This document shows, piece after piece, positions 2,382 through 49,294 of a stretch of DNA of 58,582 nucleotides. Source of the stretch: Patescibacteria group bacterium. Lineage in GTDB: Bacteria > Patescibacteriota > Minisyncoccia > Phycocordibacterales > CAIZLB01. Made by a program: the position numbers and the translations under genes. How positions within the stretch are numbered: position 1 is the stretch's first letter; every line of letters starts with the position of its first letter. Location of the stretch: positions 191,716 through 250,297 of the forward strand of contig JAZKFG010000002.1 in the NCBI GenBank assembly GCA_040386515.1. Direction: 5' to 3'. The notes beneath the pieces are model-generated. The model made no database searches. It had not been told where the DNA came from and was given only the letters and a program-made list of their open reading frames with translations.

Positions 2382-3200
2382 ATGAAATTGTTTCTACGAA
2401 TCATACAGCGACTCTTAATATTTATTGTAGCAATACCAATACTTTGGTTTATTGCAACGCAAATATTTACTCGCTTAGATCGTAGGCTTCCTGCCTTCGT
2501 CGCCCTCATTGTTACATATATTTTCTCAGCCTATCTTTTGCTGCCCGAATTGATTCGAATCATTCGGCAGATTTTAAGACGAAAATATATTCCTCGAACT
2601 ACGCACGCAGCCGATGGATTGTCTGCTGACCCAGTGAATATTATTTTAACAGGAACATATGATGATTTGCAGTCGGCTTTTAAAGCGGCTGGTTGGTATA
2701 CCGCTGAAAGGTTGACGCTACGAACTGGATTAAAGATCATCACACATTTTGTAAGAAATAAGCCATATCCTGAAGCACCCTTTAGTCCACTTTTTCTGTT
2801 TGGACGAATGCAGGATTTTGGTTTTGAAAAACCTATTAGCAATAGTCCGCGTCAGCGTGATCACATACGTTTTTGGGCAGCAACGCATGACCCTGTTCTT
2901 TCTATAACTGATATTAATTATTGGATTGCAAAAGAGGAAGTGGATTTATCAAAAGCAACTATTTGGGTTGGTGCAGCTACGCGTGACACAGGCTTTGGCT
3001 TGACGCAGCTTACGTACGAAATCAGCCATAGGATTGACAAGCATATTGACAACGAGCGTGAGTATATATTGCATGTGCTTGAGGCAACTGGGTGGATTCA
3101 GAATATTGAGTATATCAATCCAGGCGAATGGGTAGCTGGCAAATATATAACAGACGGTAAAATCGTATGTGCAAAACTGGTTGCTCCAATCAAGAAATAA
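2382..3200 (+). CDS. Membrane protein with LssY_C-like C-terminal domain
   Basis: ORF trimmed to the ATG at 2382, one nt after the aquaporin stop. Two N-terminal TM helices, then a domain resembling LssY C-terminal family members (PVNIILTG...FLFGRMQDFGFEKP...RDHIRFW). The family call is from memory. Confidence 0.5.
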   Translation: MKLFLRIIQRLLIFIVAIPILWFIATQIFTRLDRRLPAFVALIVTYIFSAYLLLPELIRIIRQILRRKYIPRTTHAADGLSADPVNIILTGTYDDLQSAFKAAGWYTAERLTLRTGLKIITHFVRNKPYPEAPFSPLFLFGRMQDFGFEKPISNSPRQRDHIRFWAATHDPVLSITDINYWIAKEEVDLSKATIWVGAATRDTGFGLTQLTYEISHRIDKHIDNEREYILHVLEATGWIQNIEYINPGEWVAGKYITDGKIVCAKLVAPIKK

Positions 3201-3216
3201 GGTATATACTACATAT

Positions 3217-3696
3217 ATGAAAAAGCCTACCTATAATGCAACTGTATATGGATTGCTCCTTACTGTGGTTCCTGTTATTTGTCTTGTTCTTATGGAAATA
3301 ACAGGCAACAATCTTACATTCGATAATCCAACTTGGTATGACATCGCAATTCAAACAGTGTTGCCAGTATTTATTTTATACCTTGGTATTCGCGCACGAA
3401 AAAAACAGCTTGGAGGATTGATAACTTGGAAACAGGGAACAGTTGCTGGATTTGAAATATCGCTTATATTTGCATTGATTTCCCCGTTTGTATTTTTGGC
3501 ATACTATTATTTTGTAAATTTCAAAATTATTGCATCAGTTCGAAATGCATATCATTTAACTCGAGCAAGCGATATGGGTGTGATTCGAATAGATATGCTT
3601 TTGCAATTTGTTAGTGCGCTTATTTTTGGATTAATAGTTAGTTCTATTATTTCATTTTTCATTCGATCAAAAACATTGAATCCAGAGATTAAATAA
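3217..3696 (+). CDS. Hypothetical polytopic membrane protein
   Basis: ORF trimmed to the ATG at 3217; TATACT at 3205-3210 ends 7 nt upstream. Four predicted TM segments. No motif recognised. Confidence 0.45.
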   Translation: MKKPTYNATVYGLLLTVVPVICLVLMEITGNNLTFDNPTWYDIAIQTVLPVFILYLGIRARKKQLGGLITWKQGTVAGFEISLIFALISPFVFLAYYYFVNFKIIASVRNAYHLTRASDMGVIRIDMLLQFVSALIFGLIVSSIISFFIRSKTLNPEIK

Positions 3697-3710
3697 TATA
3701 TCATATATAC

Positions 3711-4268
3711 ATGAGTAACTTTACAAGAAAAAGCGGAAAAGGATTTACGCTTATTGAATTATTGGTTGTTATTGCAATTATCGGATTGCTTTCAAGTATT
3801 GTCTTAGCGTCGCTTTCAAGTGCGCGTTCAAACGGACGAGACTCAAAGCGAGTTTCAGAAATTCGACAAATTCAATATGCGCTTGAATTGTATTACAATT
3901 CAAATTTGCAGTATCCAACTTGTTTATATACTGCATCTGGATGTACGACAACATTGCAAGGTTCGGCTTTTATGAAAAATGTACCTAAAGATCCACTTAG
4001 CGGACTTGGATATTCTTACGCTGGTAATGGATCAGGGGCAAACTGTTCAAGTTATCACTTAGGTACTTCGCTGGAAAATAATAAAAACAATAAGATTTTA
4101 CAAACTGGAAGTGATGCGACTGTGCAGGCAATATGTACGGGTAGTCCGGCAGACTTCTCAGGGCTTTCATACGCTGCAGGTGGGCAATTGTGTAATACAA
4201 CAGCTGGTATTGCACAACCTACTGCTGTTGCAACAGGAGAAACATGTTACGACTTAAAACCGAACTAG
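3711..4268 (+). CDS. Type IV pilin / pseudopilin-like protein
   Basis: N-terminal prepilin cleavage/methylation motif KGFTLIELLVVIAIIGLLSSIVLASL, followed by a Cys-containing globular part. Confidence 0.8.
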   Translation: MSNFTRKSGKGFTLIELLVVIAIIGLLSSIVLASLSSARSNGRDSKRVSEIRQIQYALELYYNSNLQYPTCLYTASGCTTTLQGSAFMKNVPKDPLSGLGYSYAGNGSGANCSSYHLGTSLENNKNNKILQTGSDATVQAICTGSPADFSGLSYAAGGQLCNTTAGIAQPTAVATGETCYDLKPN

Positions 4269-4293: not shown

Positions 4294-4839
4294 ATGAATA
4301 AAGATAATACTCTCATTATAATCTTAATATTGATTTTTATTATTCTTGCTGGAATTTCAGCTACAAAGCTATTTCCCGGCACTGTTCTTCAAATTGTAGA
4401 CAGAAACGATGTTCAATCGCCTGTAACCGTAAACGGAACTACTAGTGCGCCAACTACGCTTGATGTCTCTCTGATGCCGATTTCAATATCGAGTTCAACA
4501 CCTACTGTTAATGTAAATGGCAGTACATTTCGATTGACAACATTTAACAATACTGTTATTGGCCCTGATCAAAAATACACACTTGGTTTCGAAGGTTCAA
4601 AGTTGAATGCAAAATTTTGTAATAATATGGGAGGTGAGTATACATTACAAAATGGAATACTTCGATCTAATATGATTAGTACTATGATGGCTTGCGCCGA
4701 ACCTGCCAATCTTATGCTTATAGAAAGCACATTTGGTTCAATGGTAAGCAGCGGTGCTAAGTTCTCTCTGCAAGGTCATACATTGACTTTGATTGATACA
4801 TTGAATAACACTATGGTCTTCACAGTCTTTATGGACTAA
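4294..4839 (+). CDS. META-domain (HslJ-like) secreted/membrane-anchored protein
   Basis: N-terminal TM anchor. The C-terminal part (NAKFCNNMGGEYTL...MMACAEP...FSLQGHTLTL) resembles META domains. TGaTATACT at 4278-4286 ends 8 nt before the ATG. Confidence 0.55.
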   Translation: MNKDNTLIIILILIFIILAGISATKLFPGTVLQIVDRNDVQSPVTVNGTTSAPTTLDVSLMPISISSSTPTVNVNGSTFRLTTFNNTVIGPDQKYTLGFEGSKLNAKFCNNMGGEYTLQNGILRSNMISTMMACAEPANLMLIESTFGSMVSSGAKFSLQGHTLTLIDTLNNTMVFTVFMD

Positions 4840-7294: not shown

Positions 7295-7630
7295 ATGCAC
7301 ACAATATCTTGGGATGAATTTGAAAAAGTAGAAACACGAGTAGGAACAATTACTCAAGTTGACGATTTTCCTGAAGCGAGGAAACCTGCCTATAAATTAT
7401 TAATAGATTTAGGCGAGTTTGGTATTAAGAGATCGAGTGCACAGATTACTACGTTATATACCAAAGAGGAATTAATTGGTAAGCAAATTGTATGCGTAAT
7501 TAATTTTCCAATAAAGAAAATTGGAGCATATGAATCAGAAGTTTTGACATGTGGATTTTACAGAGAAAACGGAGATGTTGTTTTAGTTGTACCTGATAAA
7601 CCAGTATCGAATGGATTAAAGCTTGGATAA
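7295..7630 (+). CDS. csaA: tRNA-binding domain protein (CsaA/YgjH-like)
   Basis: 111 aa. DEFEKVETRVGTITQVDDFPEARKPAYKLLIDLGE...QIVCVINFP matches the OB-fold CsaA/EMAP family. TGaTATAAT at 7280-7288 ends 7 nt before the ATG. Confidence 0.8.
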   Translation: MHTISWDEFEKVETRVGTITQVDDFPEARKPAYKLLIDLGEFGIKRSSAQITTLYTKEELIGKQIVCVINFPIKKIGAYESEVLTCGFYRENGDVVLVVPDKPVSNGLKLG

Positions 7631-8152: not shown

Positions 8153-8758
8153 ATGAAAACTAAAACAATTCTTACATTACTAACGTTAACTCTTGCTCAG
8201 AGCGCATCTGCTCTTACAGTAAATGCTGCTCTCGACAGTAGTACATCTGTTTCTGCTCCTGTGCCTGTTATGGCTACAAGCGGAACAACAGTTGGAGTTA
8301 ATGCTGATGCATCGAATACTATTATTCTTAATGCAGATGCGACAACTACTGTAGGTGCTGGTGCAAATGTAAATACAAATGCTTCAGGAACAACTGAAGT
8401 AATGACGATGAATTCATCTGCTAATACTGTTTCTTCAGTAAATACAGATAATGATGATAAAGTAACTGTGACATATAAGCGTCCAGCAAAACTTTTTGGA
8501 TTTATTCCAGTAAGTATTACTGAAAGAGCAACTGTAAAAGTTGAAGATGACGGAACACGAACAGCTGAAGTGTCACAGTCATGGTGGGCATTTATGGCGA
8601 AAGCTAATACAAAGACTAAAGAATTTCTAGCAGCCCTTAAATCACGTCTACAGGCAAATGCAAATGTTTCGTCAAGTACTACACTAACTGCAACAGAGAA
8701 AACTCAGTACGTAACTGAAATCAATGCAGCAGCGGATGCAGCATATTCAGGAAACTAA
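8153..8758 (+). CDS. Hypothetical secreted protein (Thr/Ala/Asn-rich)
   Basis: 201 aa with a signal-peptide-like N-terminus (MKTKTILTLLTLTLAQSASA). Low-complexity middle. No family recognised. Confidence 0.5.
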   Translation: MKTKTILTLLTLTLAQSASALTVNAALDSSTSVSAPVPVMATSGTTVGVNADASNTIILNADATTTVGAGANVNTNASGTTEVMTMNSSANTVSSVNTDNDDKVTVTYKRPAKLFGFIPVSITERATVKVEDDGTRTAEVSQSWWAFMAKANTKTKEFLAALKSRLQANANVSSSTTLTATEKTQYVTEINAAADAAYSGN

Positions 8759-8805
8759 AGAGTGATGTTTAAATAGTGAAAGCATATGGTGTATACTTGC
8801 ATCAT

Positions 8806-10428
8806 ATGCTTTTACTTATCGTATCTTTTATAGCTGGAGTATTAACTGTTTTAGCGCCATGTATATTGCCACTGCTTCCTGTTATAGTTGGCGGTTCATT
8901 TACAGGCGACATAAACAAAAAGAAAACATTTACTATAGTCGCATCGCTTGGAATATCGGTTATTGCTTTTACCTTACTTCTTAAAGTAAGTACGCTTTTT
9001 ATCACTATCCCTGAATCGACATGGACATTTGTCTCAGGTGGTATTATTTTAATTCTTGGACTGATTACCTTATTTCCATCGCTTTGGGAAAATAAGATAT
9101 TGAATCGTTTAACTCGTCAGTCTAATGCGCTTATGAATGCTGGAGATCAAAAGAATAGCTTCTGGGGAAACGTGCTGGTTGGCGCATCGCTCGGCCCTGT
9201 ATTCTCGACATGTAGTCCGACATACTTTATTATTCTTGCTACTGTGCTGCCTGTACGACCGCTAGTTGGAATTGTATATTTACTTTCATATACTATAGGG
9301 CTTTGCTTGTCTCTGTTTTTCGTAACATATATTGGGCAAAAGATTATTAATAAGCTTGGGGTTGTGGCTGATCCGAAAGGAATATTTAAAAAAGTATTGG
9401 GTGTAATATTTATACTGGTTGGACTTGGAATTTTAACAGGGGTAGATAAAATAGTGCAGACTAAAATAGTTGATGCTGGATTCTTTGATGTGACTAAAAT
9501 TGAACAAGGATTATTGCAAAAAAATATGCAGAAAATAGTTGGCGGTGAAATTAAAAAAGCTCCAGAGCTCGCTGGTATTGAAGGGTATATAAATACAGAG
9601 GGTAAGCCAATAACTCTTGCAGATTATAAAGGCAAAGTAGTGCTTTTAGATATTTGGACATATAGCTGTATAAACTGTAAGCGCACTATTCCATATATTA
9701 AAGAATGGTATGCAAAATATAAAGATCAAGGATTTGTGGTGATTGGAGTACATACGCCTGAATTCGCATTTGAAAAAGTTCCAGCCAATGTGCAGAAAGC
9801 AGTGAAGGAGTTCGGTATTGAATATCCTGTTGTGCTTGATAATGCATACGATACATGGAATGCATTTGGCAATCAGTATTGGCCGAGAAAGTATTTAATA
9901 GATGGTGAGGGTAATATTATCTATGATCATATTGGCGAGGGCGGATATGAGGAATTTGAAATGCAAATTCAAAAAGCTTTAAATGTAACAAAGCCGATTA
10001 CAACTCTGGCTCCTGCTGATACGAGCGGGGCGAATAGTCCTGAGACATATTTTGGATCTTCACGTAATGAATTTTTGGCAAATGGTAAAAGTGGTGTTTC
10101 TGGTATTCAAACATTTACACTGCCTAAAACATTTTCAACTAATAATTTGTATCTTGGAGGCACTTGGAATTTTAGTCCTGAGTATGCTGAGAATACGAGT
10201 ATGGCTGATATTGTATTTCCATATGATTCGAAGAATGTGTACATGACTGCTGGATCGGATGCAGGGGTTGAAGTAGAGATTTACAATGATGATGCGTTGG
10301 TAAAAACGGTTATGATTAAGGATGAGACATTGTATACGCTTATTGAAAATGAAAATGCGGGGAAGCATACATTGCATATAAAAATACCGAAGAAAGGATT
10401 GAAGGCTTTTACGTTTACTTTTGGGTAA
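8806..10428 (+). CDS. DipZ-like thiol:disulfide oxidoreductase (CcdA/DsbD membrane domain + thioredoxin-like domain + C-terminal beta domain)
   Basis: N-terminal CcdA-type TM core (LAPCILPLLP ... FSTCSPTY). Thioredoxin fold with CINC active site (DIWTYSCINCKRTIPYIKEW). The alternative start GTG 8776 is in frame; ATG 8806 lies 9 nt after TATACT (8792-8797). Confidence 0.8.
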   Translation: MLLLIVSFIAGVLTVLAPCILPLLPVIVGGSFTGDINKKKTFTIVASLGISVIAFTLLLKVSTLFITIPESTWTFVSGGIILILGLITLFPSLWENKILNRLTRQSNALMNAGDQKNSFWGNVLVGASLGPVFSTCSPTYFIILATVLPVRPLVGIVYLLSYTIGLCLSLFFVTYIGQKIINKLGVVADPKGIFKKVLGVIFILVGLGILTGVDKIVQTKIVDAGFFDVTKIEQGLLQKNMQKIVGGEIKKAPELAGIEGYINTEGKPITLADYKGKVVLLDIWTYSCINCKRTIPYIKEWYAKYKDQGFVVIGVHTPEFAFEKVPANVQKAVKEFGIEYPVVLDNAYDTWNAFGNQYWPRKYLIDGEGNIIYDHIGEGGYEEFEMQIQKALNVTKPITTLAPADTSGANSPETYFGSSRNEFLANGKSGVSGIQTFTLPKTFSTNNLYLGGTWNFSPEYAENTSMADIVFPYDSKNVYMTAGSDAGVEVEIYNDDALVKTVMIKDETLYTLIENENAGKHTLHIKIPKKGLKAFTFTFG

Positions 10429-17289: not shown

Positions 17290-17376
17290 GGAGGATTGGA
17301 TGAGTGGTTTAAATCAACAGTTTACTAAACTGTCGAGCCAGAAATGGTTCCGTGAGTTCGAATCTCACATCCTCCG
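17290..17376 (+). tRNA. Type II tRNA with Ser identity features; anticodon loop TTACTAA gives anticodon ACU
   Basis: Acceptor stem GGAGGAT/ATCCTCC. D arm GAT..ATC with a GG-containing loop. Anticodon stem ACAGT/ACTGT. Long variable arm GAGCC-AGAAAT-GGTTC. T arm GTGAG-TTCGAAT-CTCAC. Discriminator G; no encoded CCA. TGcTATATT (17270-17278) lies 11 nt upstream. Confidence 0.8.
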
Positions 17377-29651: not shown

Positions 29652-29911
29652 AATAAAAACGACCCCACCTGCATAGTGATCAAACCCGAAGGGATCTAAC
29701 GTATGGGTGAGGCCCTGTGTTTCCACAGTGGGCTGTTAAAGCGCTACTACCGGAGGACCTTTATAATTAAGGTCGACATGCACGGTTTCACTAGGCTTAT
29801 ATAAAACGTACCATATGATTTGCTTAGGTACAATGCATAAAAAATAGCCGTGCATTAATCGCCCCACTCCTGGGATCAATCAACGCACGGCCACATGGCA
29901 AACGTGCCAAC
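29652..29911 (-). ncRNA. Candidate structured ncRNA of unknown class (~260 nt)
   Basis: GC-enriched convergent spacer. On the minus strand there is a cUUCGg hairpin (plus 29685-29693), CUGUG-GAAA-CACAG (29715-29728), GCCGUGC/GCACGGC (29847-53/29885-91), GACCUU/AAGGUC (29756-61/29769-74) and GUACC/GGUAC (29808-12/29827-31). A terminal stem CCUCACC/GGUGGGG is followed by U5AU3. Extended -10 TGaTAGCAT lies at 29918-29926 on the minus strand. Confidence 0.4.
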
Positions 29912-29942
29912 GAATGCATGCTATCACAGATTTCTGAAAATT

Positions 29943-29991
29943 AAAAATACCAAACCCATGCTTGGCTGCGACGTATGGGTTTGGTATTTTT
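29943..29991. terminator. Bidirectional terminator hairpin (17-bp stem) carrying a conserved 21-nt core
   Basis: AAAAATACCAAACCCAT (29943-29959) pairs with ATGGGTTTGGTATTTTT (29975-29991). Abuts the dnaE stop codon. Confidence 0.8.
29957..29977 (+). repeat. 21-nt repeat CATGCTTGGCTGCGACGTATG (copy 1)
   Basis: Exact reverse complement of 46022-46042. In both places it forms the apical part of a hairpin. Confidence 0.85.
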
Positions 29992-33283: not shown

Positions 33284-33322
33284 GAAAAAACCTCGGTTGC
33301 CGCCAGAGTTGGCGGGCCGAGG
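33284..33322 (-). terminator. Rho-independent terminator (GC-rich) for the upstream small membrane-protein genes
   Basis: Minus strand: CCTCGG-CCCGCC-AACTCT-GGCGGC-AA-CCGAGG followed by T6. Confidence 0.8.
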
Positions 33323-33339
33323 TGATAAGAATTGGGACA

Positions 33340-34329: not shown

Positions 34330-35238
34330 ATGGCAAGCAGACATCAATCCCGAACAATAGCATTACAATCTCTGTACGAGATTGATTTTCGTGGTATTGA
34401 CCCTAACTTGTTTGAAGAGGTTCTTGTACACAATGTGCAGGAATTTTCTCAAAATGATGTAGATATGACATACGCCAAGGCACTCCTTGACGGAATTTTG
34501 AAGAAACAAAAGGAAATAGACGCAATTATTATTAAAGCTGCCCCAGAATGGCCTCTTGATAAAATTGGAATTGTAGATCGAAACGTATTACGTCTCGGTT
34601 TGTATGAACTTATATATGCAGATAAAGCTGAAGTTCCAGCAAAAGTAGCTATTAACGAGGCTATTGAAGTGGCTAAGTTTTTTAGTGGGGACACATCAGG
34701 CAAATTTGTTAACGGAGTACTTGGCGCAGTATATAGAGACCTATATGGTGCAGAAGAGCCTAAAGCTAAAAGAGAACCTAAAGTTAAGAAAGAATTAACA
34801 GAGGAAGAAAAGCAGGCATTACCAGTACAAAAACTTGTTGGAAGTATTGTATATGCGAAGCATGAAGGTGATATGTATCTTGCGCTTGTGCATGACGTAT
34901 TTGGGTTTTGGACATTGTCAAAAGGAAAATTCCTAGAAGGTGAAAGTCTTATTGATGCAGCAAAGAGAAAAGTACAGGAAGAATTAGGTATTGCATGTGA
35001 ATATAAAGAAACTGTTGATACAAGTGAATATATTGCATCTCATCCTGAATTTAAAAAAGTTCGAAAACAAGTTGAATACGTTTTAGCTGAAGCTGAATTC
35101 TCATCGCTTACTGCAAAAAAAGAAGGAGGACTTAAAGATGCTGCGTGGTTTAAAATAGACACAGTGCTCGATCTTAATCTCTATGAAGATATGGTTCCGG
35201 TTATCAAAAAAGCTATAGACATAATAGCGAAACAATAA
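34330..35238 (+). CDS. nusB: NusB antitermination factor fused to a C-terminal Nudix hydrolase domain
   Basis: Residues 1-140 are NusB (SRTIALQSLYEIDF...DRNVLRLGLYELIY...INEAIEVAKFFSGDTSGKFVNGVLG). A Lys/Glu linker follows, then a Nudix box GKFLEGESLIDAAKRKVQEELGI. Confidence 0.8.
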   Translation: MASRHQSRTIALQSLYEIDFRGIDPNLFEEVLVHNVQEFSQNDVDMTYAKALLDGILKKQKEIDAIIIKAAPEWPLDKIGIVDRNVLRLGLYELIYADKAEVPAKVAINEAIEVAKFFSGDTSGKFVNGVLGAVYRDLYGAEEPKAKREPKVKKELTEEEKQALPVQKLVGSIVYAKHEGDMYLALVHDVFGFWTLSKGKFLEGESLIDAAKRKVQEELGIACEYKETVDTSEYIASHPEFKKVRKQVEYVLAEAEFSSLTAKKEGGLKDAAWFKIDTVLDLNLYEDMVPVIKKAIDIIAKQ

Positions 35239-35957: not shown

Positions 35958-36701
35958 TTATACTTTCGCTGGCTTAGATTTTGTTTTAAGTTTTTTGTTG
36001 GTTCGAATTCTTTGAGCACGAAGTGTACCTGTGGCTTTTGTGGATACTCTATATCCACGACCTGGAACTGTTTCTATGGTTGTGTTTTTGCCGTCTCCGA
36101 TTTTTCTTCGAATATTTCTAATATGAGTTTCAATTGTATTTGAAAATGGATCAAAATCCTTATTCCATACATGGTCCATAATATCCATTCTGCTCACTAC
36201 TTGTCCTGGCTTTTTAGCAATTTGTTCGAGAATAAGAAATTCTTTTCGAGTCATATATACTTGTTTTCCTTTTTTCGAAACAGTTAATGAGTCGACATCT
36301 ATTGTTACGTCATCAATAGTAATAATCTCTTCCTTAATATCATATGGTCGACGAACAAGAGTCTTAATACGTATCACAAGTTCAGCAATAGAAAATGGCT
36401 TAGCAATGCAATCATCGGCACCTGCTTCAAGATAGGCAATTCTGTCATCTGTATTGCCATGAATACTCATAATAAGAATTGGAGTTTTAACATATGATCT
36501 TCGAAGCTCCTTGCAGATTTCAGTACCAAGTTTTTTAGGAAGAATATGATCAAGCAAAATCAAATCATATGCATTGGTTCGTGCAATATATGAACCTGTA
36601 TCTCCTTCATGACACGTATCAACGGTCATATGCTCAGACTGTAAACATTCTACAAGTGCTTTTGTTAAATCAATATCGTCTTCTATAAGAAGTATTCGCA
36701 T
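35958..36701 (-). CDS. OmpR-family response regulator (orphan) with basic C-terminal tail
   Basis: 247 aa with receiver and winged-helix domains, and an extra tail RAQRIRTNKKLKTKSKPAKV. No adjacent kinase. Confidence 0.85.
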   Translation of the reverse strand: MRILLIEDDIDLTKALVECLQSEHMTVDTCHEGDTGSYIARTNAYDLILLDHILPKKLGTEICKELRRSYVKTPILIMSIHGNTDDRIAYLEAGADDCIAKPFSIAELVIRIKTLVRRPYDIKEEIITIDDVTIDVDSLTVSKKGKQVYMTRKEFLILEQIAKKPGQVVSRMDIMDHVWNKDFDPFSNTIETHIRNIRRKIGDGKNTTIETVPGRGYRVSTKATGTLRAQRIRTNKKLKTKSKPAKV

Positions 36702-36821: not shown

Positions 36822-36865
36822 TAAAAAACACCTCACTGGTCCGGAGACCAGGAGGGTTGTTTTTA
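36822..36865. terminator. GC-rich hairpin terminator at the left edge of the GC-rich island
   Basis: Minus strand: CCTCCTGGTC-TCCG-GACCAGTGAGG (one bulge) followed by a T-run. A weaker T-run follows on the plus strand as well. Confidence 0.7.
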
Positions 36866-37651
36866 CGCAAGCTGCGTATTTGCCATTACGATGGCTGAGT
36901 TGACCACACGAAACCGTTTGCAGTCGCACGGTACATGTTTGCATTCAGGACAACCATTTTCATAGACTTCTCTGACATAGTGTTCCAAATCAATGTTGAG
37001 TTGGACGGCTACAGCTATTGTCCAAGCCAGAATGTCAGCAAGCTCAGACGTATAGGCATCCTCGATATCACTGACTGAAGAGTCTAAATGATCATGACCT
37101 ATAGCAATTTCATTGAGTTCTTTTATCTCATCATCTAGCCGATGGAGACAATACAGCACCCCGCCCTTATCAGAGTTTGTTTTGCCGAACACTCTGTCCA
37201 GATTTTTCTGATGGTCATGCAAATTCCAGAACGGCTGTTCATTGCTCGGTTTGTGAAATACATATTCAGCACGCTCTTCGTCCTCGCATATACACTCAAA
37301 GGCATGACAAGAGCTGCATTCACCTTCGGGAAATTTTTTGCACATGCTTTCGGTAAAAGGCAAATCCCAGCCATGATTTACGATGGCAAGTATTCTTGCT
37401 ACCATTCTGGCTAGATTTTCGCCTAATATGTCCTTATCTTCTGCGTGTTTACGGAAAGCTTTGGTCAGCCTGTGAGATTGAGAAAGCAAAAACATGATGT
37501 GATGATTCAGACTTGGGTAATGAACCAAGTTTTTACGCTCATAAATTCTTTTAAAGTGATTACCAATTTCTGTTAAGTTCATGATAGTAGGAAAGGGTGA
37601 ATTGTTGAAAAGTCCAGATTTGACAATACCATTTGGAAATACAGGTGTCAA
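36863..37651 (-). CDS. Tandem MazG-like (all-alpha NTP pyrophosphohydrolase-like) protein with two Cys clusters
   Basis: 262 aa from the TTG at 37651; an alternative ATG at 37582 gives 239 aa. It contains two helical modules, and each ends in a Cys cluster (CSSCHAFECIC and CPECKHVPCDC). The second module has a MazG-like helix pair (EIKELNEIA...SELADILAWTIAVAVQLNIDLE). About 50% GC. The family call is by eye only. Confidence 0.5.
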   Translation of the reverse strand: MTPVFPNGIVKSGLFNNSPFPTIMNLTEIGNHFKRIYERKNLVHYPSLNHHIMFLLSQSHRLTKAFRKHAEDKDILGENLARMVARILAIVNHGWDLPFTESMCKKFPEGECSSCHAFECICEDEERAEYVFHKPSNEQPFWNLHDHQKNLDRVFGKTNSDKGGVLYCLHRLDDEIKELNEIAIGHDHLDSSVSDIEDAYTSELADILAWTIAVAVQLNIDLEHYVREVYENGCPECKHVPCDCKRFRVVNSAIVMANTQLA

Positions 37652-37671
37652 TTTTTTGTAATGATTCTACA

Positions 37672-37700
37672 TTGACTTTTTATCTAAACAACCGTATAAT
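37672..37700 (+). promoter_or_regulatory. Canonical sigma70-type promoter TTGACT-17-TATAAT
   Basis: TTGACT at 37672-37677 and TATAAT at 37695-37700, with a 17-nt spacer. It would start transcription ~125 nt upstream of the ATG at 37832. Confidence 0.65.
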
Positions 37701-37831
37701 ATGCACAGTTCTTTAACAATTTGGGTGTGTTCGCAACAGCATGTAGATACTTATTTTATACTGGTTTTTGTATGTTGCGGCGAACAACATCACAAAGTAC
37801 GCTAATCCTTGCACACGTTGTGCGAGGTTAG

Positions 37832-38572
37832 ATGGTGACTTTGGGAGAATCTAGTACCCAACGCGATATCATGTCAAAAACAAGTCAGAAAATGCAACTC
37901 CTCGCCTTTCTTGCTACTCACCTCGATGAGGCACAGTGTGAAGGAAGGGGGCTCGCCAACCTGGTTGCGGCGAAACAAGAAGGTCTGGAGGATTTAATTC
38001 GTTTCATCAACGGATATACCAGTGCAGAAATGCAGAGGGATATTCGTTTGGACCCTGCACAGTTTGGTTTCCCTCCTTTCGCAAAAAGACTGGTCTTTAT
38101 TGGTGTTGAGCCGACCAGATCTAAGTTCTATGAACCTGCAAATTTTGCGGCTGTCGTTACTACAGCAATTTACACTTTTTCTATTAAAATTCCTGAAGAA
38201 GGAGTTCCGATGCCAAAAATCTTTGAGACGCTCATAAGTGCTTTTGATCTAATCTACTCCGCACTGATTGATGATAAAAAAGCTTGTTATCCAGTCAAAG
38301 CAAATGATCTGATTCAAAAACATTGTGGTTTTCATGAGCTTTCTTGCATCCTTGAAAATCTAAATAGGATGCCTGCTACATTTGCGCAAGCGGTTCAAGG
38401 CAAAATTGCTTATGGTCTTCGTGACGCAATTCGAAATGGTAACGGCATTATTATGGTTCCGTACATCGATTTCAAAGCCAAAGCTCCAGCACTTGGATGG
38501 GTAGGGATTGAGGATGTTGAATTCGATCAGAATTCCGTCGCACTCTATAATCCTGCTCTGCAGTTCAACTAA
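37832..38572 (+). CDS. Hypothetical protein (246 aa), no recognisable domain
   Basis: Intact ORF of ~47-50% GC. The ATG is preceded by GAGG (37824-37827). Followed by a strong terminator. I recognise no motif. Confidence 0.6.
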   Translation: MVTLGESSTQRDIMSKTSQKMQLLAFLATHLDEAQCEGRGLANLVAAKQEGLEDLIRFINGYTSAEMQRDIRLDPAQFGFPPFAKRLVFIGVEPTRSKFYEPANFAAVVTTAIYTFSIKIPEEGVPMPKIFETLISAFDLIYSALIDDKKACYPVKANDLIQKHCGFHELSCILENLNRMPATFAQAVQGKIAYGLRDAIRNGNGIIMVPYIDFKAKAPALGWVGIEDVEFDQNSVALYNPALQFN

Positions 38573-38594
38573 TCCCTCCCAAGGCCTCACCCTA

Positions 38595-38630
38595 GTCCGG
38601 CGCCACTCTCAGTGGTCGCCGGGCTTTTTT
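38595..38630 (+). terminator. GC-rich rho-independent terminator at the right edge of the island
   Basis: CCGGCGCCAC (38597-38606), loop TCTCA, GTGGTCGCCGG (38612-38622, one bulge), then GC and T6. Confidence 0.85.
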
Positions 38631-38684
38631 CATGCAATCCTCATTCATTGCCAAAAAACCCATAGTAATGTACTATATCGCTAT

Positions 38685-38903
38685 ATGGCACAAGACTCTC
38701 AGGATAAAGTAATACTCGTTGGAACTGTTGTAGAATCACTACCCGACACTCATTTTAGAGTGCAGCTTGATGATGGAAAACTCGTACTCGCATACCTTAC
38801 AGGTAAGATGAAATACAACCGAATTCGTATCTTAGTCGGAGATACTGTAGAAATTCAGCTCGACGCGCACGGAGGAAAACCACGTCTTATTCGACGACGA
38901 TAA
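38685..38903 (+). CDS. infA: Translation initiation factor IF-1
   Basis: Trimmed to MAQDSQDKVILVGTVVESLPDTHFRVQLDDGKLVLAYLTGKMKYNRIRILVGDTVEIQL. The upstream part of the listed ORF runs through the terminator. Confidence 0.9.
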   Translation: MAQDSQDKVILVGTVVESLPDTHFRVQLDDGKLVLAYLTGKMKYNRIRILVGDTVEIQLDAHGGKPRLIRRR

Positions 38904-40296: not shown

Positions 40297-41604
40297 ATGA
40301 AAAGGCTGTCACATGTAAGTTTGGTAATAGGCACAATATGCCTTTTTGCTATATCTGGAACATATATAAATGCGCAAACTGCAACAACGCAAACAACTGC
40401 TCAGACAAAGGAGCAGTTGCAGGCACAGATTGAAGAGCGTGCACGTTTGATTCAAGATCTCGAAAAGGAAATCAAAGCCTATGCTGATTTGGCTGATAAA
40501 TCTTCTAAAGAAGCAGAGACATTAAGTGGATATATTAAAGGATTAGAGCGACAGGTAAGTGCTGTATCTGTTGATATTAAAAAAAGTGAAACGCTTATTC
40601 AAAAAAGTAATTTAGAAATTACTCAGATTTCAGATGATATTGAGGAAGGACAGGCACGAATGGCTCGCTTTAAAGCAGGGCTTGCTGAAACACTCGTTAC
40701 GCAATATCAATCTGATGATATTAATATTATTGAAAACCTTTTAGGAAATAAAAACCTGCTTGCTTCAGTTCAGGATCTTGATCATTTACAAAATATTCAA
40801 GCAGAGGTAGGAAGTAGAGTTCTTGATGTGATTAAAGAAAGACAATCACTTGAGAGTAATAAGACAGAAGAAATGAAAAAGAAGGAAGAACTTGAAGCTG
40901 AGAAAAATAAATTGCAGTCAAAGCAAAAGACTCTTGATATTGCAAAAGCTGAACAGAAAAAAGAGCTTGAATTAACTAAAAATCAGGAAAAGAATTATAA
41001 GACAATTCTTGACGATAAAAAGAAAAAGAAAGCTGCATTTGAAAAAGAGCTTTTTGATTATGAAAAAAAGTTGACTTATGTGCTTAATCCAAACAGTATT
41101 CCAAAAGCCAATAACTCTGCTCTTGACTGGCCGCTTGACAATGTACTTATTACACAGCAATTTGGTAAAACAAATGCATCGGCAAGACTTTATGCTGCAG
41201 GAACACACAATGGTGTGGACTTTAGAGCAGCAGTTGGAACTCCTATAAAATCTGCAGGGAATGGAAAAGTGGCAGGAACAGGGGATACTGACGCTGACTG
41301 CAAAGGTGCATCATTTGGACGATGGGTATTGATTAAATACGACAACGGTCTGGCTACAACATACGGACACCTTTCAAGTATTTCAGTGAGCGCAGGACAA
41401 GCTGTGACTTCAGGACAGGTTGTTGGATATAGTGGAAACACTGGATATTCAACTGGTCCACACCTTCACGTGAGTACATATGCAGCTGACGCGGTGAATC
41501 CTGTAACTCGACCAAGTAATACATGTCCTGGAAAAAGTATGACAATGCCAGTGTCTGCGGTTAATGCATACCTTGATCCACTTGTGTATTTCCCTAAGAA
41601 ATAA
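40297..41604 (+). CDS. M23-family metallopeptidase with N-terminal coiled coil (EnvC-like)
   Basis: 435 aa with a signal peptide and a long coiled coil. M23 motifs HNGVDFRA and GNTGYSTGPHLHV. Confidence 0.88.
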   Translation: MKRLSHVSLVIGTICLFAISGTYINAQTATTQTTAQTKEQLQAQIEERARLIQDLEKEIKAYADLADKSSKEAETLSGYIKGLERQVSAVSVDIKKSETLIQKSNLEITQISDDIEEGQARMARFKAGLAETLVTQYQSDDINIIENLLGNKNLLASVQDLDHLQNIQAEVGSRVLDVIKERQSLESNKTEEMKKKEELEAEKNKLQSKQKTLDIAKAEQKKELELTKNQEKNYKTILDDKKKKKAAFEKELFDYEKKLTYVLNPNSIPKANNSALDWPLDNVLITQQFGKTNASARLYAAGTHNGVDFRAAVGTPIKSAGNGKVAGTGDTDADCKGASFGRWVLIKYDNGLATTYGHLSSISVSAGQAVTSGQVVGYSGNTGYSTGPHLHVSTYAADAVNPVTRPSNTCPGKSMTMPVSAVNAYLDPLVYFPKK

Positions 41605-48534: not shown

Positions 48535-48570
48535 TAAAAAAACCTCCCGAGCACGTAAGTGCCCGAGAGG
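48535..48570 (-). terminator. GC-rich rho-independent terminator
   Basis: Minus strand: CCTCTCGGGCAC-TTAC-GTGCTCGGGAGG followed by T8. Confidence 0.85.
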
Positions 48571-48592
48571 CCGAAGATTGAAACAGGTGAGT

Positions 48593-49294
48593 TCAGAACT
48601 CGAAGGACATGTCTTTTAGTCTGGAAATGACATTGTCAATCCTCTGCAGGGGAGCGAGATGTCCGCCTCCGCAAGAGATGCAGGCAAAACTGCGCCGAGT
48701 ATTTCCCGACACATTGATGCCTTTCCCTCCAACCATTCTGTCATCTGGACTCGTCACAACTGCAACCTTTATTCCATCTGGGATGAAGAAAAGTTCCGGC
48801 TTCGCGAACTGACGCATGGTCATTTCGCGAGCAAAGCGTCCGCTGTCTGGTTTAAGGTTTGTCATAACTTCATCCACTTTCTCTTCGGAAACCGAGAGGA
48901 GATTTTTGACATCACTGCGGGAAAGCATGAAATGCTTGCCGGTGAACATTTTCCACAGATATTTTCCCATGGCCCAGAATACCGGATCTTTGCGTCCGAA
49001 CTTCTTGCCTTTAGGTGGCGGTGGGCTCATCAATACTATCTTGGAAATTTTCATTTCCTTGGGGAGGGTTTTAAGAACCTCCTCAATGATTGTGCAGCCA
49101 GCACTGTGACCGACTAGAGTTGTGATTTCTGGATGACGGATAAGATATCCGATCACCGCCTTGGCACGCGTTTCGACGCTGCCGAGACTGGACATGTCGT
49201 CCATCATCGCAAAGATTTCACTAAGACGTTGTCCAAGTTTTCCAGCAGGGTTAAACCACATGCCGGGAACGAAGAGAGAAGTATTTTTCATCAA
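48593..49294 (-). CDS. Alpha/beta-fold hydrolase (serine esterase/lipase-like), GC-rich
   Basis: 233 aa. Nucleophile elbow LVGHSAGC and a candidate His in GGGHLAP. About 50% GC, with long shadow ORFs on the opposite strand. TGA stop. Confidence 0.7.
   Translation of the reverse strand: MMKNTSLFVPGMWFNPAGKLGQRLSEIFAMMDDMSSLGSVETRAKAVIGYLIRHPEITTLVGHSAGCTIIEEVLKTLPKEMKISKIVLMSPPPPKGKKFGRKDPVFWAMGKYLWKMFTGKHFMLSRSDVKNLLSVSEEKVDEVMTNLKPDSGRFAREMTMRQFAKPELFFIPDGIKVAVVTSPDDRMVGGKGINVSGNTRRSFACISCGGGHLAPLQRIDNVISRLKDMSFEF

Follow-up and report, generated by a model that had tools for sequence, protein, structure and literature searches.

A variable site upstream of infA in a Patescibacteria genome probably holds two independent genes: a tandem MazG-type protein and a relative of retroelement-diversified proteins behind a structured leader RNA

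MazG-type proteins are known as single-domain modules of ~95-120 aa that form dimers or tetramers, as the two-module chain of E. coli MazG, and as the eukaryotic house-cleaning enzyme DCTPP1, a tetramer of single modules. Proteins with a C-terminal variable region (VR), such as Bordetella phage Mtd and Treponema TvpA, are targets of diversity-generating retroelements (DGRs), of which clade 2 is restricted to Patescibacteria (Roux et al. 2021, PMC8144416). Structured RNAs associated with reverse transcriptases (RTs) have been described as motifs RT-1 to RT-19, with RT-10 located between the template repeat (TR) and the RT of phage BPP-1 (Weinberg et al. 2017, PMC5737381). Here, we analyze a 58,582-nt stretch of Patescibacteria (candidate phyla radiation, CPR) DNA from contig JAZKFG010000002.1, referred to below as the window, in which a block at 36822-38630 carries two divergent open reading frames (ORFs) between an OmpR-type response regulator gene and infA, with a hairpin terminator at each end (Table 1). 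One encodes a MazG-like protein (unit 1), and the other a 233-aa protein, here called the orphan, which is preceded by a conserved leader RNA (unit 2). The block is probably a variable slot occupied by two independent single-gene transcription units that are neighbors by chance, a MazG-type enzyme and a protein of a DGR-target family behind its leader. Both proteins are of known kinds, and the new element at this locus is the leader RNA. All of the evidence presented is computational.

Table 1. Features of the block and of its flanks, in positions of the window
Feature	Positions	Strand	Basis or remark
Low-GC Patescibacteria (CPR) window, 58.6 kb			37.2% G+C overall
OmpR-type response regulator gene, 247 aa (left flank)	35958..36701	-	Pfam Response_reg 5e-25, Trans_reg_C 1.5e-23
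Bidirectional GC-rich hairpin, A-run before and T-run after; terminator of MazG-like gene	36822..36865	.	
Gene for 239-aa tandem all-alpha MazG-type NTP pyrophosphohydrolase (P0001)	36863..37582	-	Gene caller, family alignment A2
C-module Cys knuckle C211-x2-C214-x4-C219-x-C221	36920..36952	-	Invariant in 8/8 members
E-x2-E...E-x2-D metal-binding motif of C-terminal module, codons E152 to D183	37034..37129	-	
N-module Cys knuckle C89-x2-C92-x4-C97-x-C99	37286..37318	-	In 7/8 members
Promoter-like site of MazG-like gene, TTGACA-17-TATTGT with TG extension	37623..37651	-	10/12 match, consensus only; ~35 nt upstream of ATG 37582
Unit 2 promoter TTGACT-17-TATAAT	37672..37700	+	11/12 match
Conserved structured 5' leader RNA	37701..37870	+	About 165-170 nt
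Leader box AGTTCTTTAA	37707-37716	+	
Leader hairpin P1, long, TTCGC...GGCGAA	37730-37784	+	Followed by single-stranded CAACATC
Leader three-part hairpin P2	~37792-37844	+	
Leader unpaired GAGAATCTAGTACCC	37845-37859	+	
Gene for 233-aa protein of unannotated Patescibacteria (CPR) family	37871..38572	+	
VR-equivalent of the 233-aa gene, diverged	38429..38563	+	Aligned with VRs and translated TRs of L039, L042
GC-rich hairpin and T6; unit 2 terminator	38594..38631	+	-26.0 kcal/mol, z=-4.85
infA (IF-1; right flank)	38685..38903	+	Pfam eIF-1a 6e-15; belongs to neither unit

An earlier note, made from the letters of this DNA, had interpreted the block as a horizontally acquired two-gene module, and its description is largely right: both divergent ORFs, the promoter of the plus-strand gene, and the three peptide motifs that it named are present. 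The comparative data give the two genes separate histories. They face opposite ways, each with a promoter and a terminator of its own. When all 19 collected proteins were compared by tblastn with every collected locus, a test of pairing that the earlier note had itself named, the two families were found together only in the window: among 14 related loci, none of the five with a MazG-like gene has a member of the orphan family, nor does any of the nine orphan-family loci have a MazG-like gene. Furthermore, L002, a sister Patescibacteria genome, has the MazG-like gene and lacks both the orphan and the leader. The lack of co-occurrence, the opposite orientation, the separate promoters and terminators, and the solitary gene of L002 together argue for independent units. 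The surroundings of the two families are also distinct, in that MazG-like relatives adjoin DNA_alkylation and ABC-type ATPase (ABC_tran) genes, and orphan-family relatives sit among genes for tRNA synthetase, PGK, FtsW, TsaD, NlpC/P60, and YkuD proteins.

In the alternative proposed by the earlier note, the two proteins would act together as a nucleotide-pool-targeting defense or toxin-antitoxin-like pair, acquired as one functional module. The genes are indeed adjacent, with a 288-nt divergent promoter region in common; no other 1.8-kb stretch of the window is as GC-rich as their block; and an AbiL defense pair occurs upstream of infA in a sister genome (L001, see below). We nevertheless consider such a pair highly unlikely, given that the families meet nowhere else, that the MazG-like gene of L002 has no partner, that the transcription units are separate, that the orphan family has a context of its own in a DGR and a dedicated leader RNA, and that neither window protein matches the defense-system profiles of PADLOC-DB 2.0 at E<=1. 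PADLOC likewise gave no match for the relatives P0003, P0006, P0018, and P0011, while the positive control, AbiLi of L001, scored 4.6e-84. A literature search turned up no defense system built on such a MazG-like protein.

The compositional rise that had been taken as a mark of transfer is real, but does not establish one. The block (1809 bp) has 42.2% G+C, compared with 37.2% (standard deviation 1.8) for windows of equal size, and ranks first, with the runner-up at 26.1-28.0 kb reaching 42.0%. Of the two 60-nt counts in the earlier note, 14/60 at 40561-40620 is right and 31/60 at 37001-37060 becomes 30/60 on recounting. Gene by gene, the deviation is modest, both for the MazG-like gene (41.9% G+C, z=1.5; third-position G+C, GC3, 41%, z=2.2) and for the orphan gene (42.5%, z=1.7; GC3 35.5%, z=1.3). 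Both families exceed their flanks in G+C in all genomes examined, by 3 to 6 points (MazG-like family) and by 2 to 14 points (orphan family), so that the rise characterizes the families themselves and does not prove a recent transfer.

As for other marks of a recent island, the G+C of the block is raised by 5 points and the orphan is absent from L002, where the MazG-like gene is present. There is no tRNA adjoining the block (the sole tRNA of the window is at 17290), and no direct repeats flank it, only chance-level 14-18-mers. The ORFs of 34-41.6 kb are all ordinary genes, with no integrase among them. The GC-rich terminators at the two ends of the block do exist as the earlier note described, with folding energies for the left one of -21.3 kcal/mol (minus strand, z=-4.8) and -19.9 kcal/mol (plus strand, z=-4.0), and for both terminators none of 200 shuffles folds as well. 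They are, however, not peculiar to the block. Equally strong GC-rich terminators lie elsewhere in the window (29839-29991, 33285-33335, and 48536-48587) and hence represent host style, not a foreign mark.

The leader RNA of unit 2 is part of a layout that is common to all loci of the orphan family: a promoter of the TTGACA-17-TATAAT type, the box AGTTCnTTnAAA, the TTCGC/GGCGAA hairpin, CAACATC, the three-part hairpin, GAGAATCTAGTAACC, and the start codon, which follows GGCGAA by 89-96 nt. Leaders were found at 10 distinct loci including the window, as well as at L040, a second contig that duplicates L039. The promoter of the window copy is the best of 34 promoter-like sites and the sole 11/12 match in 10 kb, and by eye, an equivalent TTGACA-17-TATAAT-like site occupies the same place in six relatives (L039, L041, L042, L044, L046, and L051).

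Conservation of the fold is evident from the alignment of eight loci (A6), which holds 41 pairs with 89.6% of cells paired, as against 42-48% in slid controls; 18 pairs have changed on both sides, and none of 500 shuffles reaches any of five measures. A covariance model built without the window (R2) finds a single match there, at 37699-37873 (75.7 bits, E~2e-15), which is full length and ends on ATG 37871, and L051, which had no part in the training of another model (R1), reaches 133 bits. On the antisense strand, scores are only 20-35 bits, roughly 100 bits under the sense strand, and many of the conserved pairs are G-U; both features assign the fold to the sense RNA. Rfam 15 has nothing at gathering score in the window, with only noise at E<=5 in 37560-37900, and nothing relevant in L039, L041, L042, or L043. 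A pattern scan for the leader gave one true match in the JGI metagenomes (L051) and four in IMG/VR, all of which fall by chance in GC-rich coding DNA and lack the hairpin. A long-range pairing between the 5' box AGTTCTTTAA and a 3' segment GAGAATCTAG, suggested by eye, was rejected as unsupported, as L043 changes one side without compensation.

The RNA model also corrects the reading of the gene behind it. The earlier note had placed the plus-strand start at 37832, giving 246 aa; gene callers, all homologs, and the RNA model agree on ATG 37871 and 233 aa. With this start, the leader is about 165-170 nt long instead of ~125 nt, and the GAGG at 37824-37827 that had been read as a Shine-Dalgarno-like site falls, together with ATG 37832, inside the conserved leader stem P2. 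For the minus-strand gene, ATG 37582 (239 aa) is the most likely start, not TTG 37651.

Unit 2 is probably a self-contained cassette made up of a strong sigma-70 promoter, the structured leader, the 233-aa protein, and a terminator. The leader is retained in family members with a template repeat and also in those without one (the window, L045, and L046), which suggests that it most likely controls expression of the protein, via translation or mRNA stability and possibly through binding of a ligand or a protein, and has no part in retrohoming. Going one step further, we tentatively suggest that it could be an undescribed class of cis-regulatory RNA, responsive to a ligand or a protein and dedicated to cytoplasmic binding proteins of Patescibacteria whose C-terminal surface is rewritten by DGRs in some genomes. 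If true, the leader would govern the timing of binding-protein production, and would tie hypervariable recognition inside the cell to a regulated response of bacteria with reduced genomes.

Instead of regulating the mRNA in cis, the conserved element could act as a small RNA in its own right, as a signal for processing or stability, or at the DNA level, as a site (of recombination, for example) that travels with the gene. The cassette-like behavior of the promoter-leader-gene unit, which occurs at unrelated chromosomal positions and is always GC-richer than its flanks, would fit such a role, as would the lack of an obvious expression platform. This explanation seems improbable to us, because the element always lies between promoter and ATG at the fixed spacing given above, no terminator separates it from the ORF, and the conserved G-U pairs and strand asymmetry point to a sense-strand RNA.

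The orphan protein itself has no match in Pfam, NCBIfam, PHROGs, PADLOC, or the PDB. The same holds for its family, with no Pfam match in 11 members (window and 10 relatives), no NCBIfam match in 12, and no PDB match for the family profile. A word-indexed search returned only the protein itself, and relatives emerged from an exhaustive phmmer search of 1.8 billion representative proteins, which gave ten of 143-266 aa at E-values from 5e-6 to 6e-4. In further scans, alignments A2 (MazG-like family) and A3 (orphan family) proved too divergent, the closer alignment A4 gave no confirmed relative in the JGI metagenomes or IMG/VR, and phage and plasmid collections contained no orphan-family match. 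Five residues are invariant in the family (D146, H151, G153, P197, and W210 in the 233-aa numbering; alignments A3 and A7). No N-terminal hydrophobic signal-like segment is visible by eye in the orphan protein.

The relatives indicate what kind of protein this is. In L039 and L042, whose proteins match the orphan at E=5.3e-4 (P0018) and E=7.9e-6 (P0011), the last ~125 nt of the gene are repeated about 370 nt downstream. In L039, the gene copy (VR, 3875-4002) and the downstream copy (TR, 4377-4504) are identical at 110 of 128 positions, with 17 of the 18 differences on TR adenines; in L042 (VR 2917-3041, TR 3426-3550), the corresponding figures are 109 of 125 and 14 of 16. The translated TRs have Asn codons (AAC/AAT) where the proteins vary, and an ORF adjoining the L039 TR is bAvd-like (PF22296, E=1e-10, above cut-off). 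These adenine-specific differences, together with bAvd, are the signature of a DGR, and the C-terminal ~42 residues of the family are the VR of a DGR in other genomes. This homology points to a ligand-binding protein, and the product of unit 2 would be a cytoplasmic binding protein of a DGR-target family, its binding role being suggested by the relatives.

Several further features of these loci were noted in passing. The spacer of ~370 nt between VR and TR (L039:4019-4376, L042:3052-3425) is strongly conserved, though the proteins are just 49% identical. It contains a terminator hairpin and an extended -10-like TGTGATAAAAT, followed by ~230 nt with apparent compensatory changes (for example ACGGAAGAGACC...GGTTTCTTCC versus ACGTGGGCGG...CTTCCCGC) and no Rfam match, and looks like a structured RNA leading into the template repeat. 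L044 has, immediately in front of its promoter-leader-gene cassette, a tRNA-like sequence recognized by eye (~415-490, anticodon TGC, Ala). L046 (3574-10714) has the same gltX-M23 peptidase pair as the window, with the orphan-family gene, which has a leader and no TR, ~3.7 kb downstream of the pair; in the window, the cassette is upstream of infA-gltX, such that it lies near the same core genes at a different position.

The window copy differs from the DGR-linked relatives in its own C-terminal region. Its VR-equivalent has lost the LD..W element, a conserved Cys, and the 3' end encoding ALREQ, over which VR and TR are the same in the relatives. Within the 58.6 kb, there is no TR (the best match of 38300-38560 elsewhere, by ungapped and local comparison, is ~50% identical, which is chance level), no Avd gene, and no ORF of >=150 aa combining YxDD with GxxxSQ, as judged by a crude motif scan for an RT. 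A TR is also absent from L044, L045, and L046, the last searched with 10-kb flanks, and no RT is visible on the short related contigs. From L045 and L046 without a TR and L039 and L042 with one, it follows that the family includes both diversified and fixed members, and given the missing TR, RT, and Avd and the diverged VR-equivalent, the window copy is most likely a fixed, non-diversifying paralog.

Alternatively, the 233-aa gene could be an active DGR target that is diversified in trans by a TR, RT, and Avd located outside the window. Its relatives are DGR targets, the TR of L042 sits on a 4.8-kb contig without an RT or Avd gene, so that trans arrangements may exist, and the window covers only about a fifth of its ~292-kb source contig. 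We regard this as unlikely, in view of the elements lost from the VR-equivalent, the absence of TR and RT from the window, and L046, where even 10-kb flanks are without a TR.

Turning to unit 1, the earlier note had likened the minus-strand protein to MazG, and this assignment is borne out at the family level. As a single sequence, the protein stays under the Pfam cut-offs (PRA-PH 15.9 versus 21.3 bits, MazG 13.3 versus 22), with the PRA-PH, MazG-like, and MazG models all aligning to ORF residues 167-230, and its PDB matches are marginal (1vmg E=0.005, 5ie9 E=0.014). A word-indexed search returned the protein alone; using the two-sequence alignment of the window protein and its L002 homolog as query yielded six further Patescibacteria proteins, for a family of eight. 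The profile of these eight (A2) matches 1vmg at 1.7e-15, 5ie9 at 7e-8, iMazG 2q73 at 2e-6, YpjD 2gta at 1.4e-5, and RS21-C6/DCTPP1 at about 1e-3, with matches to the N-module in 2yxh (E=0.008) and 4qgp (E=0.009). An exact-sequence look-up found neither of the window's two proteins on record, and NCBIfam and PHROGs scans of both gave nothing useful.

An AlphaFold2 model of the MazG-like protein (mean predicted local distance difference test, pLDDT, 83.4; predicted TM score, pTM, 0.85) has eight helices arranged as two sets of four. In Foldseek comparisons with the PDB, the best matches were E. coli MazG, DCTPP1/RS21-C6, and iMazG, at weak E-values of 0.15-0.4, with a probability of 0.99 for DCTPP1/RS21-C6 and iMazG and TM scores to the target of 0.6-0.7; weaker matches were to NTP-PPase-like proteins of phages. 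The metal motif of the C-module aligns to EEvGEL...EElaDv of 1vmg and 5ie9, and its residues E152, E155, E180, and D183 are invariant in all eight members. At the position of the catalytic Asp, the N-module of the window protein has Arg63 (ARILAI, as against ELADILAW in the C-module; alignments A1 and A2), and only the outlier P0008 has an intact N-module motif (ELSDVL).

Unit 1 is thus a tandem, pseudo-dimeric MazG-type protein in its fold, motifs, and family, with what its sequence indicates to be one intact site, in the C-module, and an inactive-looking N-module. The C-terminal module would presumably cleave (d)NTPs to (d)NMP and pyrophosphate at a magnesium site, the N-terminal module presumably standing in structurally for the second subunit of a MazG dimer. 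The CxxC-x4-CxC knuckles probably bind zinc in a structural capacity, and the most likely role of the protein would be sanitation or tuning of the nucleotide pool. In the phage collection, the sole match to the protein (21.7% identity over 78% of the query, E=2e-4) is a 330-aa NTP pyrophosphohydrolase carried as cargo by a filamentous Vibrio phage of 8 kb (Tubulavirales; L052, PQ189347.1, 6649-7641).

The site in which the two units lie is itself variable. A GltX-based scan with one genome per species identified Patescibacteria metagenome-assembled genomes with 66-78% GltX identity as the nearest relatives. In the relatives L001-L005, infA is 76-83% identical to that of the window. Of these, only L002 shares the arrangement in which a variable insert separates the regulator gene from infA. 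Core genes lie upstream of infA in L004 and L005, and topA in L003. Directly upstream of infA in L001 (7815-9665) is an abortive-infection pair, AbiLi (AAA_21, 4.6e-84) and AbiLii (RloB, 7.7e-27), which shows that the site accepts accessory genes; the G+C of these two genes (30%) is lower than that of their surroundings (35%). The site upstream of infA is hence a variable spot within a small clade. The proposal that the block is accessory and acquired stands to the extent that the slot varies, whereas a private acquisition of the MazG-like gene is at odds with its full-length, 37% identical homolog in the same slot of L002.

This L002 homolog is bracketed by 46-nt direct repeats (7482-7527 and 8328-8373, 91% identical), each of which is a palindromic GC-rich terminator hairpin that resembles the window terminator at 36822-36865. 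Also in the L002 slot are a DUF1653 gene and a stretch of about 1.5 kb in which no gene is convincing, and no remnant of the orphan or the leader RNA was found in 8290-9787. Further repeated promoter-like segments (8272-8335, 8971-9003, and 9313-9354) were noticed in the 1.5 kb before infA. The proteins encoded around the slot are far better conserved between the window and L002 than the MazG-like protein: nusB and rnc are 91% identical, the regulator 83%, infA 82%, and gltX 77%. The two MazG-like proteins resemble each other no more than they resemble family members from unrelated contexts, and their divergence reflects either very fast evolution or replacement.

A number of points weigh against the interpretation of the block as two independent units with ordinary roles. 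The divergence just described, 37% identity next to neighbors at 77-91%, fits a conflict gene too, and the AbiL pair in the L001 slot is as compatible with a conflict (defense) gene as with a housekeeping one. The negative result on co-occurrence comes from few long loci, most contigs being short, and both families are small, with eight MazG-like members on the one side and 12 orphan-family proteins and 10 distinct leaders on the other. The single-sequence AlphaFold2 model of the orphan is unusable (pLDDT 32) and was discarded, and the leader has no terminator-like U-run and does not obviously sequester the ribosome-binding region. Finally, as the window is about a fifth of the source contig, a TR and RT may act on the orphan gene in trans.

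The first two of these points bear on a further explanation, namely that the MazG-like gene alone is a fast-evolving conflict gene in a defense hotspot, acting either against phages, by depleting nucleotides or degrading a signal, or in counter-defense. The direct repeats around the L002 copy would also be in line with this, as would the fact that tandem NTP-PPase-like proteins are common phage cargo, with the distant relative in the Vibrio phage as an example. We find this doubtful, as neither the window protein nor P0003 or P0006 matches PADLOC, the catalytic and Cys residues are strictly conserved, and other members lie among ordinary genes, beside a DNA-alkylation-repair-like gene, a setting that fits nucleotide or DNA hygiene. 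A MazG-type enzyme of the nucleotide pool, independent of its neighbor, remains our preferred reading of unit 1.

What the analysis changes is, first, that a false lead is removed: adjacency and the G+C rise had suggested a new two-gene defense system, which the comparative data do not bear out. In its place stand a CPR-restricted tandem MazG enzyme with one apparently live and one apparently dead site and two putative zinc knuckles, which diverges unusually fast in a slot that elsewhere holds an abortive-infection system, and an unannotated DGR-diversified family that lacks a recognizable C-type-lectin signature and, as judged by eye, a signal peptide, and each member of which is accompanied by a structured leader RNA that is absent from Rfam. 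Patescibacteria have a DGR clade of their own (PMC8144416), and a DGR target that is regulated and apparently intracellular would be informative about the purpose of hypervariation in this phylum.

Some observations concern the surroundings. The OmpR-type regulator gene belongs to neither unit, and a -10-like hexamer ends 8 nt before the infA ATG, making leaderless expression plausible for this gene on sequence grounds. The ORF at 34330-35238 (+, 302 aa) appears by eye to join a NusB N-terminal half to a C-terminal half with a NUDIX box (GKFLEGESLIDAAKRKVQEELGI) and is 91% identical to its L002 ortholog. The strongest compositional outlier among the window ORFs is 48593-49294 (-; 48% G+C, z=3.5; GC3 53%, z=4), which resembles alpha/beta-hydrolases weakly (Ser_hydrolase, E=2.7e-4, just under the cut-off), is followed by the strong terminator at 48536-48587, and adjoins a SPOUT methyltransferase gene.

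Among described proteins, unit 1 resembles single-domain MazG (Sulfolobus SSO3215, 1vmg; Bacillus MazG, 5ie9; B. subtilis YpjD, 2gta; integron-cassette iMazG, 2q73) in its four-helix all-alpha fold and in the metal motif of the C-module. Unlike these, the window protein has two modules fused in a single chain, an inactive-looking N-module, and a CxxC-x4-CxC knuckle following either module; the alignment with 1vmg stops just short of the knuckle. Like E. coli MazG (3cra), the top Foldseek match over 225 columns at a weak E=0.15, it is an all-helical chain of two modules, and the lengths are similar (239 aa). The superposition is nevertheless poor (TM 0.29, root-mean-square deviation 17 A), with a different domain arrangement, 15% identity, and no Cys knuckles in the match. 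The catalytic module also has the fold of DCTPP1/RS21-C6 (2oie, 6sqw, 7mu5; Foldseek probability 0.99, TM ~0.6, profile E 1e-3), an enzyme with the same house-cleaning role as is proposed for unit 1; DCTPP1, however, lacks the fused tandem arrangement, and at 18% identity, substrate specificity is not transferable. The AbiL system (AbiLi AAA ATPase and AbiLii RloB) has no relation in sequence or architecture to either window gene.

The orphan is comparable to the targets of DGRs, including Mtd, TvpA, and those of clade 2, in that it is homologous to proteins with a C-terminal VR and comes from the same phylum as clade 2. It departs from them in having no TR, RT, or Avd nearby and in belonging to a family without a Pfam C-type-lectin or FGE match. 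To our knowledge, conserved 5' leader RNAs have not been described as components of DGRs. The closest parallels to the leader are the motifs RT-1 to RT-19 (PMC5737381), which likewise are structured RNAs with a link to retroelements, in at least one case to a DGR. Whereas those motifs adjoin RT genes, the leader described here precedes the target gene and persists in loci without a TR or RT.

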